Below, piece after piece: positions 1 to 41,863 of a stretch of 41,863 nt of DNA (position 1 is the stretch's first letter; every line of letters begins with the position of its first letter). The notes beneath the pieces are model-generated. The model was not told where the DNA came from. It was given only the letters and a program-made list of their open reading frames with translations, and searched no databases. Source of the stretch: a virus; UHGV virus genome UHGV-0159554. One strand, 5' to 3'. The position numbers and the translations under genes are program-made.

Positions 1-56
1 CCGGACTTTATGGCGTTACGCAGGAAGAGCTTTTGATGGACGATGAGGACGAGTAG
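1..56 (+). CDS. 3' end of the acidic protein starting at 41671
   Basis: In-frame continuation (P)GLYGVTQEELLMDDEDE-TAG. Confidence 0.85.
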   Translation, partial: GLYGVTQEELLMDDEDE

Positions 57-103
57 AAGAACGATCTGGCAGAGTGAAGACGCTATGGGTCAGCCCAGTA
101 AAG
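42..103 (+). repeat. 62-bp direct repeat, copy 1 (gene end plus intergenic spacer)
   Basis: 53/62 identical to 357..418 by manual alignment. Confidence 0.9.
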
Positions 104-110
104 AGTCGAG

Positions 111-371
111 GTGGATAAGGTGGGAATAGAGTTTTCAGAATACCAGCTGCTTTTGAGAGATCGTTTTCTTGCTCAGGTAGATGAGGATGAAAAAGTCCTT
201 ATGATTGGATTAGCACTCGGCCCGGAACAGTATGGGGTGGAAGATGAGATGCTTCAGTATTTGAAGTGCCACCCAGGCGCAAGTTTCCAGGAGGTAGATG
301 AGTACTTTTATTCCATAATACCGCCCCTGGAAATAGTGGATGATGACCTCTTGGATGATGAGGACGAGTAA
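111..371 (+). CDS. Acidic 86-aa protein; putative immunity protein 2 (divergent paralogue)
   Basis: EDEMLQYLKCHPGASF aligns with EQDIIDYGIAHPDAPF; ends DLLDDEDE like its neighbours. Confidence 0.8.
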   Translation: MDKVGIEFSEYQLLLRDRFLAQVDEDEKVLMIGLALGPEQYGVEDEMLQYLKCHPGASFQEVDEYFYSIIPPLEIVDDDLLDDEDE

Positions 372-418
372 CAGAACGATTTGGCAGAGTTAATACGCTG
401 TGGTTCAGCTCAATAAAG
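357..418 (+). repeat. 62-bp direct repeat, copy 2
   Basis: 53/62 identical to 42..103. Confidence 0.9.
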
Positions 419-437
419 TAGCATGGAGGCTATTGGA

Positions 438-686
438 ATGGAAGAAAGGTTGAGATCGTTTCTCTCCCGATACCTTGGGCAGGGAATACAGAAAAAGGAT
501 ATTGTCACTCAAGAGGCTATTGACCTTCTGGTAATGGCAGCCACAATAGACCATTTTGAACAGGATATTATAGACTATGGAATCGCACATCCAGATGCAC
601 CATTTTGGGATTTTATGCAGTTTGGACCGGATGGATTGCTCCCAGACGATGATGGGGCTGATTTGCTGGATGATGAGGAGGACTGA
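438..686 (+). CDS. Acidic 82-aa protein; putative immunity protein 3
   Basis: GGAGG at 425-429 before ATG 438; paralogue of the junction-spanning ORF; ends DLLDDEED. Confidence 0.85.
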   Translation: MEERLRSFLSRYLGQGIQKKDIVTQEAIDLLVMAATIDHFEQDIIDYGIAHPDAPFWDFMQFGPDGLLPDDDGADLLDDEED

Positions 687-786
687 GCATGTCGAAAGAT
701 GATTACTTTCATGAAGCGGGTGCAGGAGTTCCTGGGCCCGGAAGGCGAGATCGCCAATATGGTGATCTCCCGGTTTGCATGATGCC

Positions 787-2211
787 ATGCCAGAGCTGAA
801 GAGAGCCCCCAACGCCGAGGAGCTGGAAAAGCTCATCGCCCTGTTTCTCAAGGCGGAGACCGATATCATCAATGAGATAGGCCGCCTGAGGTCGATGGGC
901 AATGTGGACTATCATGCGGTAGCTGCCCTGGAGCGGGTGCAGCGGATCCTGCAGAGCTTGGAAAATGACTGCTGGGAGTATGTCCCCAAAATGGTGGAAA
1001 AGCAGTTCTATGTGCGTGTGCCGGAAGCCCGGCGCATTGCCGGTGAGACAGTGGAAAAACACATAGCGGGTTACAAAAATGCCGCGGTGCTGACCGCTGA
1101 TCAGTATGCCATCGTGGACAAGCTGGTCCAGAACCTGATGGGGGAGATCACCGCCGCCAATGTCACGGTGATGAGCACGCTTCAGAATGCGCTCATCGGG
1201 CGCCCGGAGGCAGACTTTTACCGCCGGGCGGGGATCGAGGCCACAGCAGCCATGCAGGCCGCCGGTAAGGGCGCATACAAGGCCCTGCCGGAGTTTGTGC
1301 AGACGCTGAAGCGGGAGGGCGTGACCGCCTTTGTGGACAAGGCGGGGCGCAACTGGAGCCTGCATACATACGGGAGCATGACACTGCGTACTACTTCCCG
1401 GCAGGCCGAGGTGCTGGCTGTTCTGACCGCAGACCCGGAGCAGGACCTGTACCAGATCAGCAGCCATGGCAGTACCTGCGCTATCTGTGCTCCGCTGGAA
1501 GGGCGGGTCTACTCCCGGAGCGGCAGCGACCCGGACTTCCCGCCGCTGGCCGCTGCCTTTGGTAAGGTGGATCCAGACGGGCCGGACGACCTGAGCAACA
1601 GCTATCTCAACATTCACCCAAACTGTATTCATTCGCTCCTGCCCTGGTCGCCTGCAGGCAGGACGGAACAGGAGATTGAGAAGGTCAAACGCTTTTCCTC
1701 CTTCCGTACCAATCCGCCCAGCATCGACCCGCGAACAAAAAAGCAGATCGAGGCGTACCGCAAAAAGGAAGAGGCCCGTGCCAAGTGGCTGCGGGACTAC
1801 CGCCAGTGGGAGCGCTACCGTATGACGCTGGGGGACAAGGTGCCCAGGACCTTCGCCACCTTCCAGAAACACAAGCGGGCGAACGATGGGAAGTACAAGA
1901 ATTGGCTCCGTGAATATCGAGCAGCAAACCGAATTTCTGATTTAGCAGAAACACTGCCCCTCCCGGGTCATATGGCGGGTATTGTCCCTGCCGGTGCAAC
2001 TATTGAGCACATACGCACTATTGCCGGATATGGCAGCAGCAGTGCTATTCGAGATGCTGAGCGCCTTGCTGCTCAATATGGCGGAGACCCGTTAAAATGG
2101 GAGAAAAAAGGTGGTATAATAGAGACAAACAACTATCGCTATGATGTCCATTGGTACGAATTAAATGGTTTGCATCATGAGGAAAAGCTAAAGGGTGTGA
2201 AGCGAAAATGA
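787..2211 (+). CDS. Phage minor head protein (MuF / minor capsid 2 family) with C-terminal putative toxin domain
   Basis: CxxC and HPNCxH motifs, position after portal; last ~95 aa are lower-GC (IRDAERLAAQYGG...HWYE); start could be 775 or 787. Confidence 0.85.
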   Translation: MPELKRAPNAEELEKLIALFLKAETDIINEIGRLRSMGNVDYHAVAALERVQRILQSLENDCWEYVPKMVEKQFYVRVPEARRIAGETVEKHIAGYKNAAVLTADQYAIVDKLVQNLMGEITAANVTVMSTLQNALIGRPEADFYRRAGIEATAAMQAAGKGAYKALPEFVQTLKREGVTAFVDKAGRNWSLHTYGSMTLRTTSRQAEVLAVLTADPEQDLYQISSHGSTCAICAPLEGRVYSRSGSDPDFPPLAAAFGKVDPDGPDDLSNSYLNIHPNCIHSLLPWSPAGRTEQEIEKVKRFSSFRTNPPSIDPRTKKQIEAYRKKEEARAKWLRDYRQWERYRMTLGDKVPRTFATFQKHKRANDGKYKNWLREYRAANRISDLAETLPLPGHMAGIVPAGATIEHIRTIAGYGSSSAIRDAERLAAQYGGDPLKWEKKGGIIETNNYRYDVHWYELNGLHHEEKLKGVKRK

Positions 2212-2480
2212 AGGTTAAATATGTAGGGCCCTCAAAAGGAACGCTTTCTCTCACGGATGGAAAAGTATATGAATGCCTCGGTGTGGAATACGGATTCCTC
2301 CGCGTGATAGATGATGAAGGATACAGCTATTGGGAGAAAGAGCCGGACGAAAAAGAAGGCTACCTATATCCGCCTGTGGGGGTATTTGTAAATGAAGACG
2401 GCTCACGGGCAGGGCGCTTCGAAATCGTAGAAGACGATGCTCAGGGAACGCTGAGCCGATTGTTCCAGAATAACAGATAG
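2208..2480 (+). CDS. Putative immunity protein for the MuF C-terminal domain
   Basis: ATGA overlap with MuF stop; small, acidic; MKVKYVG...LTDGKVYECLG...LRVIDDEG. Confidence 0.7.
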   Translation: MKVKYVGPSKGTLSLTDGKVYECLGVEYGFLRVIDDEGYSYWEKEPDEKEGYLYPPVGVFVNEDGSRAGRFEIVEDDAQGTLSRLFQNNR

Positions 2481-2993: not shown

Positions 2994-4193
2994 ATGGCGA
3001 TCGCATATTTTGGAAGCCCGATCAGCCCCAATCAGATCGAGACGGCCGAGGGATACCTCATCTGCAAAAATGTCCCCATCGCCCGGACCGGCAGCCAGAA
3101 CTATCTGGCCAGGGAGATGGGAGTGGCAGATGCCGACCCGGAGGCAGTGATACCGGTGATGCGCTACCCCGAAGATGTGTTTGCACCGGAGACCATCGCC
3201 TCCTTTGAGGGCAAGCCGGTGACAATGACCCACCCGCCGGAAGATGTGACACCCGAGAATTGGTCGGCCTATGCCAAAGGGCATGTACAGAATGTGCGCC
3301 GGACCGGTGAGCACATCATGGCCGATTTGGTCATCACCGACCCGACGCTCATCGACCAGGTGCGCAGCGGATCCATGCGGCAGGTCTCCTGCGGGTATCG
3401 CTGCGACTATGCGGCGGATCCGGCCGGGGGATACCGCCAGAAACGGATACGGGGCAACCATGTGGCTGTCGTCCCCCTGGGACGGGCCGGGGCTGCTGTA
3501 TCAATACAAGACGCCGCCGCACCGGCGGCAGAGAAAGTGAGGAAGAGTATGAACATGTTTAACCGCGTGATCTTGACCGCTCTGGGCAAGGCGGCCAAGG
3601 ATGCAAGCCCGGAGGAACTGGAGGAGCTTGTGGCCACTGTAGAGACTGCGCTGGACGCCGAACCCGCCGCACAGGCGCAGGAGGCAGTACCCGCAGCCGA
3701 TGAGATGACGGAGAAGGTGGCCGGGGACGACGATCTCGGCGGCAAGCTGGACAAGGTCCTTGCCATGTTGGGCGAGCTGGCAAAGAAGAATGACCGGGAG
3801 GAGAAGATGGAGCGTAAGATGTCCGACGAGGGCGATCTGGAAGAGCTCATCGAAAAGCTGACCGGAGAGGATGGCGAAGAGGCGGCCACTGTGACCGAGC
3901 ACGACGCTGCTCCCGATCCCGAGGTACGGGACGCCGCCCTGCAGATCCTGAAGAATGTCCGTCCCGCCGTGGCCGCCATCAGGGATACCAGGGAGCGTGC
4001 CCGGGTGGTGGACGCCCTGCTCAAGTCGGTGCAGAGCGACGCCATGACCGGTGTGCTGGGTGCAGTCACCAGGACAGCCAAGGCAAAGGCCGATGATGCC
4101 GCCACCGCCCAGCAGAAGTACGCCGACCGTTGTCGTGAAGTGGAGTCGGCCTATGCCGCCCGCAACCCCCACATGAAGAAGGAGGAGAAGTAA
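2994..4193 (+). CDS. Head maturation protease/scaffold (DUF2213 family)
   Basis: NVPIARTG, SFEGKPVT..HP, SCGY, NHVAVV..GRAG motifs; acidic helical C-terminal half. Confidence 0.85.
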   Translation: MAIAYFGSPISPNQIETAEGYLICKNVPIARTGSQNYLAREMGVADADPEAVIPVMRYPEDVFAPETIASFEGKPVTMTHPPEDVTPENWSAYAKGHVQNVRRTGEHIMADLVITDPTLIDQVRSGSMRQVSCGYRCDYAADPAGGYRQKRIRGNHVAVVPLGRAGAAVSIQDAAAPAAEKVRKSMNMFNRVILTALGKAAKDASPEELEELVATVETALDAEPAAQAQEAVPAADEMTEKVAGDDDLGGKLDKVLAMLGELAKKNDREEKMERKMSDEGDLEELIEKLTGEDGEEAATVTEHDAAPDPEVRDAALQILKNVRPAVAAIRDTRERARVVDALLKSVQSDAMTGVLGAVTRTAKAKADDAATAQQKYADRCREVESAYAARNPHMKKEEK

Positions 4194-38636: not shown

Positions 38637-39872
38637 TTGGAATTTTCACCATTCTCCCGCAAACAGTACATGGCCATGAGTTGGTGGACAGAGGGCAGCC
38701 CCTACCGGGACTATGATGCTCTGATCTGTGACGGAAGCATTCGTGCCGGCAAATCGCTGGCTATGGTGATCGGCTTTGTCACCTGGGCGATGGACCGGTT
38801 TGACGGCCAGACCTTTGCGCTGTGCGGCGTATCCATCGGAGCGCTGCGGCGGAATGTGGTCAAGCTGGTGTATGAGGCATTGGGGAGCTACTTTCACATC
38901 CAGGAGAACAAAGCAGAGAACTTTCTGGAGATCCAGGGGGCAAGGAGCACCAACCGTTTTTTTCTCTTCGGTGGTAAAGACGAACGCTCCGCCGCCTTCA
39001 TTCAGGGTATTACCCTGGCCGGCGTGCTCTTTGACGAAGTGGCTCTGATGCCGGAGAGCTTTGTCAACCAGGCAGTGGGCCGATGCTCCATAGCGGGCAG
39101 CAAACAGTGGTTCAACTGCAACCCCGAAGGGCCGAGCCACTGGTTCCTGAAAAACTGGATCAAGGAGCCGAAGGGGCGGAAGGTGCTGCACCTGCATTTC
39201 ACGATGGACGATAACCTCAGCCTGACAGATGAGATCCGGCAGCGGTACAAAAACGGATTCAGCGGCATATTTTATCAGCGCTTTATCCTGGGGCTTTGGG
39301 TGCTTTCGGACGGCGTGATTTACGATATGGTGACCGAGGGATCGTACTACACCGATGACCAGAGGCCGGTTGACATGGAATGGAGATCCATGCGTACGAT
39401 CGCCTGCGATTACGGCACAACCAACCCCTGTGTCTTTTTGGATATATACGACGATGGAGACATGATCCGGGTGGACCGGGAATACCGCTGGGACAGCAAG
39501 AAAAAATCCCGGCAGAAAACCGACCAGGAGTATGCCGATGATCTGCTGGCCTTTATGGGCAAGGAGCAATGCACTGTCCTGGTGGACCCTTCGGCCGCAT
39601 CCTTTATCGCCGAGCTGAAAAGCAGAGGATTGCTGGTCAAGGCAGCAAACAATGATGTGCTGGACGGGATCCGCAAAACGGCCACGCTCTTCCAGCGGCG
39701 CCGCCTGATGATCAATCAGGCCTGCGAAGGCCTGCGAGAGGAGCTGGGCAGCTACCTCTGGGACGAAAAGGCAAGCGCCCGCGGCGAAGAGAAGCCGGTC
39801 AAGCAGTACGACCACGCCCCGGATGCACTGCGGTACTATGTGAACAGCCTGCCCTTGTGGCGGTTTGAGTAA
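38637..39872 (+). CDS. terL: Terminase large subunit, PBSX family
   Basis: Walker A DGSIRAGKS, Walker B LFDE, CNP, DYGTTNP, DHAPDALRY. Confidence 0.95.
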   Translation: MEFSPFSRKQYMAMSWWTEGSPYRDYDALICDGSIRAGKSLAMVIGFVTWAMDRFDGQTFALCGVSIGALRRNVVKLVYEALGSYFHIQENKAENFLEIQGARSTNRFFLFGGKDERSAAFIQGITLAGVLFDEVALMPESFVNQAVGRCSIAGSKQWFNCNPEGPSHWFLKNWIKEPKGRKVLHLHFTMDDNLSLTDEIRQRYKNGFSGIFYQRFILGLWVLSDGVIYDMVTEGSYYTDDQRPVDMEWRSMRTIACDYGTTNPCVFLDIYDDGDMIRVDREYRWDSKKKSRQKTDQEYADDLLAFMGKEQCTVLVDPSAASFIAELKSRGLLVKAANNDVLDGIRKTATLFQRRRLMINQACEGLREELGSYLWDEKASARGEEKPVKQYDHAPDALRYYVNSLPLWRFE

Positions 39873-39884
39873 GAAGGTGAGAGC

Positions 39885-41657
39885 ATGTCCAGGAGAAACA
39901 AACAGAGACAAGGGGGGAGCCAGCCGGCCACCCAAGCCCCGACGGAAAATGTGCGGGTGACGGACGAATTCTCCAACCCGCTTTTCCGCCTGGGCTTTGG
40001 CAGCCAGTCGCCTTTGGAAGCCACAGAGTATCCGCTCACCAGGATGACCGAAAACTATGCCCTCCTCAACTCGCTTTACCGTACCAACTGGATCGTGCAG
40101 AATGTGGTGAGCATCGTGCCGGAGGATATGACCCGGGAATGGTTCATCCTCTCCGGGGCAGATATCTCCCCGGAGATGCAGGCGGAATTTGAACGAACCC
40201 AGCGGGTAACTCAGCTCAAAGCCAAGGTGACCGACGGCCTGCGCTGGGGACGGCTCTATGGCGGCGCCATTGGGCTGATCCTCATTCGTGGGCAGGAGGG
40301 CATCATGGACCAGCCACTGGATCCTGAGAGTATTCTCCCGGGCAGCTTTGCCGGCCTGATGATCCTGGACCGCTGGGTGGGAGTGGCGCCGGGCGACGAG
40401 ACGGTATCGGACATTGGAGACCCGGACTTTGGCCTGCCGGCATACTACCTCATCAACGATCCGGGCACCTGTCAGTTTTCCCTGCGGGTGCATCACAGCC
40501 GGGTGGTACGCTTTACCGGGCGGGATCTCCCGTATATTGAGCGGGTGGCCTGTATGTACTGGGGCGAGAGCGAGATCGAAGCGCTGTATACCGATGTAGT
40601 CAAACATGACAATGTCTCGGCCAATATGGCGGCCCTCACCTTCCGGGCCAATGTGGACACGATGGAGATGGAAAACCTGGATCAGATCCTGTCCATCGGG
40701 AACGAGCAGGCCAAGCGGAGATTCTGGACCACCATGCAGACACAGAGCGTCATGCGCTCCAACTTTGGCATTCAGCTTGTAAACAAGGGCGATCAAATCC
40801 AGAACCATCAGTACACCTTCACCGGCCTGCGGGAGGTCTATGAGAGCATGTGCCTCAACCTGGCGGGCTCGTCCCGTATCCCCATGACAAAGCTGTTCGG
40901 ACGGTCTGCGACCGGGCTCAACGCCACGGGGGAGGGAGACCAGCGCAACTACAACGACTACCTGGACAGCCAGAGGGAATCCAAGCTGCGCCCGGTATTG
41001 GAGCGGCTGCTGCCCATTATGGCCATGTCCGCCTGGGGCATGATACCGGACGGGATCGAGGTGACCTTCCCGCCGCTGTGGACCCCCACAGCCAAGGAGG
41101 TGGCCGAGATCGCCAAGGCCAAGACCGAGGCGGTCATCAGCGCCTATACCGCCGGTCTGCTCAATGTGGATACCGCCCAGCGGGAGCTCAAGAGCATGAG
41201 CGACGAGACCGGCCTCTACACCACCCTTTCCGATGCGGAGATCGAAGCCAACAAGGGCAAGACCTACCAGGACGCCACAGCGCTGCGTGACCCGCTGATG
41301 GGGCTTGGATTTGGAGATGGAGATGGGGACACTGCCCCTTTTGAGGGTGCCGCACAGGATGCGGCAGTTCTGGATTACTCCCCCAGCCAGCCCCGGGACA
41401 GGAATGGCCGGTGGACGAGCGGGGGCGGACATGGTACAATAAAGGGGACAAAGTACGCGCCATCGCCGCAGCGGACAACTGGAGGTATCCAGCTGAGTCC
41501 GAGAACCTATGCAAGACTGACAGGGATACTGAATACCCGCTTTCCTGGACTGCGGGAAGGCGAAGTCAGAAAGATACGGGACACTTCCAAGGAATACACG
41601 GTTAAAGCAGATGGGTTTGGCGGCTTTAAGGCACTGATGGTCATCAAAATAAAGTAA
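39885..41657 (+). CDS. Portal protein (DUF1073 type) with C-terminal putative toxin extension
   Basis: WGRLYGG, VHHSRV, IPMTKLFG...GLNATGEGD..NY motifs; after ~residue 497 DYSPSQPRDRNGRWT then a ~80-aa basic domain. Confidence 0.9.
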   Translation: MSRRNKQRQGGSQPATQAPTENVRVTDEFSNPLFRLGFGSQSPLEATEYPLTRMTENYALLNSLYRTNWIVQNVVSIVPEDMTREWFILSGADISPEMQAEFERTQRVTQLKAKVTDGLRWGRLYGGAIGLILIRGQEGIMDQPLDPESILPGSFAGLMILDRWVGVAPGDETVSDIGDPDFGLPAYYLINDPGTCQFSLRVHHSRVVRFTGRDLPYIERVACMYWGESEIEALYTDVVKHDNVSANMAALTFRANVDTMEMENLDQILSIGNEQAKRRFWTTMQTQSVMRSNFGIQLVNKGDQIQNHQYTFTGLREVYESMCLNLAGSSRIPMTKLFGRSATGLNATGEGDQRNYNDYLDSQRESKLRPVLERLLPIMAMSAWGMIPDGIEVTFPPLWTPTAKEVAEIAKAKTEAVISAYTAGLLNVDTAQRELKSMSDETGLYTTLSDAEIEANKGKTYQDATALRDPLMGLGFGDGDGDTAPFEGAAQDAAVLDYSPSQPRDRNGRWTSGGGHGTIKGTKYAPSPQRTTGGIQLSPRTYARLTGILNTRFPGLREGEVRKIRDTSKEYTVKADGFGGFKALMVIKIK

Positions 41658-41670
41658 ATGAGGTTGTCGC

Positions 41671-41863
41671 ATGGAAGAAAAGCTGAGGGATTTTTTGAAA
41701 AGATATATCGGGCAAGGTGAACTGAAAAAGGACTTTGTGCAAGAAGATGATGTGGAAATGCTGATCCACAGCGCATGTGTTCAAGGAATCGAACAGGAGC
41801 TTATAGATTATGGGACAGCAAATCCAGATGCACCCTTTTGGGATCTTCTTAAATTGGAGAGGC
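41671..41863 (+). CDS. Acidic 82-aa protein, 5' part (continues at 1..56); putative immunity protein 1 of the portal-linked array
   Basis: ATG 14 nt after portal stop; 193 nt here plus 56 nt at window start give MEEKLRDFLKRYIGQG...PDAPFWDLLKLERPGLYGVTQEELLMDDEDE; 38/82 ungapped identities to 438..686. Confidence 0.85.
   Translation, partial: MEEKLRDFLKRYIGQGELKKDFVQEDDVEMLIHSACVQGIEQELIDYGTANPDAPFWDLLKLER

Follow-up and report, generated by a model that had tools for sequence, protein, structure and literature searches.

A polymorphic C-terminal tail on a phage portal protein and its acidic partner genes: a candidate toxin-immunity locus

Layout of the locus

This study examined the UHGV virus genome UHGV-0159554, a stretch of 41,863 nucleotides (nt) referred to as a whole as the window, and in particular the C-terminal tail of its portal protein and the small acidic open reading frames (ORFs) behind it. 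The genome is circular and belongs to a myophage, which is considered temperate because a serine recombinase and an HTH_3 protein are encoded. A preliminary description had proposed that the portal is fused to a polymorphic toxin domain followed by its immunity gene. Our analysis revealed that the portal C-terminus is a polymorphic slot in which tails and ORFs are strictly paired, alleles are swapped between near-identical phages, and known toxin families occur. The elements concerned are as follows.

39885..41657, + strand: portal protein of 590 amino acids (aa), PF06381/DUF1073 family, with a core to about aa 480, an acidic linker (481-497) and the tail (498-590)
41364..41417, + strand: junction, with D497 as predicted P1 residue of a head protease, then the tag Y-x-P-x-Q-P-R-D-x-x-G-R-W-T (aa 498-511); putative cleavage site
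41412..41440, + strand: predicted sigma-A promoter consensus within the tail coding region, with -35 TGGACG (41412-41417), 17 nt, and extended -10 TGnTACAAT (41432-41440)
41487..41657, + strand: portion of the tail predicted to be folded, a candidate toxin whose family has not been described
41671..41863, over the circular join to 1..56, + strand: ORF1, cognate acidic helical protein of 82 aa, candidate immunity
37..418, + strand: two 67-nt direct repeats (37-103 and 352-418, 85% identical)
120..371, + strand: ORF2, paralogous acidic ORF, candidate orphan immunity
438..686, + strand: ORF3, paralogous acidic ORF, candidate orphan immunity

The Phage_portal_3 domain (PF06381, Pfam) spans aa 61-417 of the portal, and untailed relatives end near aa 480. 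The motif highlighted in the preliminary description begins at D497 (41373). The 93 residues of the tail have an isoelectric point (pI) of 10.8, with 18 K/R versus 6 D/E, and the GC content of aa 517-590 is 0.51 (0.53 at third codon positions), compared with 0.60 (0.77) in the portal core. The portal is indeed extended past its usual end by a basic, lower-GC domain, as had been described.

It was also correct that an acidic ORF starts 14 nt past the last base of the portal stop (at 41671), but the length of 82 aa, with a pI of 4.2, is only obtained when ORF1 is read across the end/start join, since within the window it is open-ended and comprises 64 aa. The circular join is supported by the related locus L090, which aligns across it in one piece, colinearly and with 96.5% identity. 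The acidic protein was modelled as a small helical bundle, for which no PDB match was found. ORF1 is followed by its two paralogues, then by a deleted yjcQ gene and by the gene of the minor head protein MuF, and each of the two direct repeats spans the acidic 3' end of one ORF (ORF1 or ORF2) plus the spacer after it. ORF2 is closest (51% identity) to the partner of a distant tail, type B, in L029, and ORF3 shares 85% and 80% identity with the ORFs that accompany a different tail allele in L034 and L236. Owing to this similarity to partners of other alleles, ORF2 and ORF3 are read as orphan immunity genes, likely directed against tail alleles of related phages, and ORF1 is likely the immunity partner of the portal tail itself.

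Polymorphism of the portal C-terminus

Related portals were retrieved (the best 80 of 305 and the best 80 of 119), and the 162 loci kept out of 169 formed 92 clusters at 95%. With tailed portals defined as those with a tail of at least 60 aa, 37 of the 92 portal clusters were tailed and 55 untailed, and MuF adjoins the portal in 46 of the latter. A small D/E-rich ORF within 25 nt was present in 36 of 37 tailed clusters versus 2 of 55 untailed clusters. The tail family of the window accounts for 28 tails, each directly followed by an ORF of the acidic family, and 9 tails are of other kinds. No member of the tail or acidic family was found at the 55 untailed loci in a profile search, the profiles being built from these same loci. 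The same tail/ORF pair was found at loci held out of profile building, namely L236, L242, L243 and the HK97-type L171 and L172.

Across 29 pairs, the identities of tail and ORF were correlated (rho 0.63, Mantel p 0.0005); for the same pairs, rho was 0.00 between portal core and ORF and 0.04 between core and tail. Together with the polymorphism of the slot, this bears out the expectation of the preliminary description that the extension and the downstream gene vary together among homologous portals. Compared with the window, L090 shows 57-77% identity from 41521 to the join and 95-100% in most 60-nt bins on either side. As most of the divergence falls in ORF1 and the latter half of the tail, it corresponds to an allele swap. 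L233 carries a core stretch 95% identical to that of the window, without a tail.

The slot of close relatives was also found to hold recognised toxin domains: ADPrib_exo_Tox (PF03496) in L076, CdiA_C (PF18451) in L116 and, with weak matches, DUF4258 in L100 and L119. The features expected of a polymorphic toxin system were thus observed here: a carrier that is conserved in its N-terminal part and variable in its C-terminal domain (37 clusters with and 55 without a tail), a small ORF behind it whose sequence changes along with that domain, recognised toxin domains at this position in relatives, and orphan cassettes or polyimmunity arrays. The latter comprise ORF2 and ORF3 of the window, cassettes of a tail fragment and an ORF in L104 and L039, and orphan ORFs in L172. 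Both the co-variation with the downstream gene and the toxin domains in relatives support the earlier proposal that the portal acts as toxin carrier. We consider it probable, with room for doubt, that the portal C-terminus is an exchangeable slot holding an antibacterial toxin that is released by the head protease, ejected with the virion and countered by the acidic ORF.

Tail families on other carriers

The same polymorphism is observed for HK97-type portals (L171-L178), which carry the tail family of the window, a DUF4258-like domain, Ntox50 (PF15542, L175) or no tail. A tail-profile search of longer proteins gave 108 matches, comprising 76 with PF06381, 11 with PF04860 and 21 without either label, mostly fragments. 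The tail domain also occurs on prohead proteases (P0120, Peptidase_S78; P0116, XkdF) and on P0148 and P0164, which are MuF-like by eye and lack the tag.

Two tail/ORF pairs were found on both portal and MuF. In the window, MuF2, the minor head protein downstream of the portal, ends in a tail and is followed by a partner ORF (1930-2480), and both have homologues in L111, where they are found at the portal. MuF2 would thus provide a second candidate toxin slot, so that this phage appears to carry two in tandem.

Structure and possible activity of the tail

In the structure model, the N-terminal third of the tail is disordered and is followed by a helix (aa 539-552) and three strands (561-565, 569-575 and 581-588), with a mean predicted local distance difference test score (pLDDT) of 71 and only about 55 folded residues. 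A fold search with the tail gave no significant match, the RelE/ParE/HigB and CdiA-CT entries being at noise level only, and neither the tail nor the ORF family matched Pfam, PHROG or the PDB. Over 100 tail representatives, the most conserved positions are Y571 (98%), G579 (96%), P554 (93%), T551 (87%) and R/K544 (81%). Neither a His, Asp or Glu kept throughout these representatives nor a conserved C-terminal T/S was seen. The designation of the domain as nuclease-like is therefore not substantiated, given the lack of a significant fold match and of a conserved His, Asp or Glu. Our best guess, held at somewhat less than even odds, is that the tail may be a basic, His-less, metal-independent RNase or a translation inhibitor with a minimal BECR/RelE-like fold. 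His-less RelE-type chemistry offers a comparison for such an RNase. A role of the tail as non-catalytic binder remains open as an alternative activity.

The strong basicity, the roughly 55 folded residues and the lack of a conserved catalytic set would also suit a tail that is not a poison. Such a tail could be nucleic-acid-binding or anti-defence cargo of the virion, with the acidic ORF acting as a chaperone or regulator that keeps the tail away from the DNA of the phage itself or counteracts cargo brought in by superinfecting relatives. Portal-fused NUDIX, 2H and InPase domains are read as counter-defence in the passages of Iyer 2017 (PMC5512222) and 2022 (PMC9503650) that concern them, and one carrier (P0172) combines portal, NUDIX and the tail domain. 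Nevertheless, orphan partners for non-self alleles, allele swaps and interchange with recognised toxins form the pattern of toxin-immunity pairs, and we regard non-poison cargo as rather unlikely.

The tag and predicted release of the tail

The residue before the PRDxxGRW tag was D in 85 of 86 DUF1073-type carriers. At this place, all 11 HK97-type carriers that were read, 9 of them by script and 2 by eye, showed ExR, and a third carrier group showed IVK in 6 of 6 members. The pre-tag residue thus follows the head module (D, ExR, K), which suggests release by the head protease and, for the window, cleavage of the portal tail at D497. The cleavage near the motif that the preliminary description had put forward is thereby supported indirectly. 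Similar motifs are present near the N-termini of these portals in 53 of 56 full-length DUF1073 proteins. The tag also recurs between the domains of long GNAT/ART/2H/MuF polyproteins, and in 54 of these (at least 600 aa and at least 3 tags; P0127-P0258) the pre-tag residue was the same in 71% of within-protein pairs versus 29% after shuffling.

The proposed releasing protease is the DUF2213 protein of the window. The pattern of pre-tag motifs would fit a prohead-protease substrate, but a literature search gave no account of the cleavage specificity of DUF2213 proteases. The SPN3US prohead protease is described as cutting the portal at a short motif (PMC5694885). The portal of the window is homologous to those of Pam3 (PMC9942802), E217 (PMC10329688) and Pa193 (PMC11456595), and the C-terminal barrel of the E217 portal is described as projecting into the head.

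The tail might alternatively never be delivered, acting instead in the portal-producing cell, where it would penalise induction or co-infection without the cognate ORF before being degraded during head maturation. Protease-cut pieces are often removed from capsids, according to the SPN3US work (PMC5694885), the virion map of E217 has no model for residues 529-765 of its portal (PMC10329688), and the account of MuF toxins in PMC10083569 treats their injection as still to be tested. However, a toxin arriving from outside best accounts for orphan immunity genes against non-self alleles and for a separate promoter, and the tag is maintained ahead of diverse domains in many head proteins; a tail that stays behind is thus the least probable of the explanations considered, and a very improbable one.

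Stand-alone tagged ORFs also occur in head modules, at L007:5481-6215, L007:7298-8263 and L011:6712-7170, each with a short leader ending in RMMxGD before the tag. From their sequences, they probably encode cargo that does not depend on the portal and shares the predicted D site.

A promoter consensus inside the tail coding region

Of 29 family tails, 28 contain a sigma-A consensus, compared with 3.6 expected from synonymous recoding, although these loci are related to one another; control stretches gave 0/55 and 0/37. In type-B tails the consensus lies on different codons, and similar sites are present in the unrelated tails of L094, L100, L117, L011, L173 and L175. It was not found in the tails of L029, L076, L119 and L121. 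The tail linker of the HK97-type L171, L172, L173 and L175 contains a perfect TTGACA-16-TATAAT, and a perfect extended -10 consensus lies at 2112-2120, in the coding region of the MuF2 tail. Promoters within a carrier gene have been described for the Rhs loci of Salmonella (PMC7043789).

The position of this consensus upstream of the folded core would also suit a selfish intracellular toxin-antitoxin module, in which an internal promoter yields a short free toxin together with the antitoxin and the fusion to the portal is incidental. Rhs C-termini are described as being expressed from an internal promoter (PMC7043789). Of 29 loci, 8 have an ATG codon at position 537, where the window has a CTG with GGAGGT 6 nt ahead of it. 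Moreover, a stand-alone basic ORF followed by an acidic-family ORF lies away from the portal and outside the head module at L178:408-1039. On the other hand, position 537 is CTC, GTC, ATC, TTA or ATT in 13 of 29 loci, neither an internal start codon nor a Shine-Dalgarno sequence is conserved in the 29 loci, and several families of head proteins carry the domain as an in-frame extension. We therefore consider a selfish module improbable, more so than non-poison cargo. As no internal start is conserved, the predicted transcript would serve mainly the acidic ORFs.

Proposed mechanism

With regard to an antibacterial toxin carried by the portal, the tail would face the capsid interior, as does the C-terminal barrel of homologous portals, and would be released within the capsid at the D|Y site (D497) by the phage head protease. 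Up to 12 copies may then be delivered to the next cell and inhibit cells that are not immune. In the lysogen, the promoter in the tail coding region could drive the ORF array separately from the late operon, ORF1 neutralising the tail and ORF2 and ORF3 protecting against tail alleles of related phages.

Several observations weigh against this proposal. The correlation between tail and ORF could be explained by linkage alone, and L047 and L112 have similar tails with dissimilar ORFs. Three HK97-type loci carry DVR in place of ExR, and the constancy of the pre-tag residue within polyproteins could also result from internal duplication.

Comparison with known systems

The feature itself is real, and the locus is probably a portal-borne version of the polymorphic toxin systems of phage heads, with undescribed candidate toxin and immunity families. 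As described for MuF polymorphic toxins (Zhang 2012, PMC3482391; Jamet 2017, PMC5576092; PMC10083569; PMC11699363), a head-module carrier of a temperate Firmicutes phage bears a variable C-terminus with a small downstream ORF; portal and MuF draw on a shared pool of tails. MuF toxin-immunity pairs have been shown experimentally for Apk2 (PMC10083569) and Bxa (PMC11699363). The portal tail is likewise encoded among the head genes of a temperate phage, but the portal of the window is not a member of the MuF toxins because it has no MuF domain, the carrier being a PF06381 portal and MuF2 a separate gene. Further differences are that the carrier here is a dodecameric portal, whereas MuF is present in 1-2 copies in SPP1, that the tag and a predicted protease site precede the tail, that an array of orphan ORFs is present, and that the families have no Pfam or PHROG model.

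Portal-fused effectors and polyvalent proteins, including PBECR, 2H, InPase, NUDIX and ART domains on portals that were proposed to be injected, have been reported (Iyer 2017, PMC5512222; 2022, PMC9503650). Fusion of an effector to a portal is thus already in print, which qualifies the preliminary description, where no characterisation for portals was known. In contrast to the window, the passages of these papers on portal fusions describe no cognate immunity genes, portal allelic exchange, tag or internal promoter, and do not present the fusions as toxin-immunity loci; our literature search found no portal toxin-immunity system. In the Salmonella Rhs-CT/RhsI system, the carrier ORF likewise contains a promoter ahead of its toxin-coding end and the immunity gene, and orphan cassettes occur too (PMC7043789), but there the toxin itself is internally expressed, whereas no conserved internal start is found here.

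Packaging, release and delivery of phage head toxins are open even for MuF, according to the passages of PMC10083569 on this point. A portal fusion is necessarily assembled into the head, in a known copy number and facing the lumen, and the locus also has the tag, together with a cut site and a promoter that are both predicted. The window, L090, L034/L236 and L029 provide natural cognate and non-cognate pairs for specificity, within a candidate toxin/immunity family of gut Firmicutes phages that has not been described. It is conceivable, at somewhat less than even chances, that the portal C-terminus is a standard plug-in slot of temperate gut phages, with a protease site, the PRDxxGRW tag, an embedded immunity promoter and a swappable toxin and antidote of undescribed families. 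Virions would then carry at most 12 toxin copies, and lysogens would collect antidotes to the alleles of relatives, resulting in allele-specific kin recognition independent of the repressor.

Neighbouring genes and further observations

The order of the head module is terminase-portal-MuF-protease-capsid, with terminase and portal at the window end and the genes of MuF2, the DUF2213 protease, cement, capsid and contractile tail at the window start. The genes flanking the slot are the following.

38637..39872, + strand: terminase large subunit
689..782, + strand: yjcQ remnant with an internal deletion, in which the start and end of the intact gene of L091 are recognised
790..2211, + strand: minor head protein MuF2 (PF06152), which ends in a C-terminal tail of its own (about 1930-2211)
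2208..2480, + strand: partner ORF of the MuF tail, phrog_34144, belonging to the family of the ORF that follows the L111 portal tail
2994..4193, + strand: DUF2213 protein, head maturation protease by PHROGs annotation, putative releasing protease

An intact yjcQ follows the acidic ORF in L091, L103, L047, L011 and L236. Other insertions were observed in the gap between portal and MuF (L016:2029-2463; L031:2319-3089; L009 and L105), and from inspection by eye we take the gap insertions to be a DUF2829/Tad2-like ORF, a methylase-like ORF and an HNH-AP2-like cassette. A small rubrerythrin/ferritin-like ORF lies at 2760-2993, upstream of the head protease, and is also present in L001.
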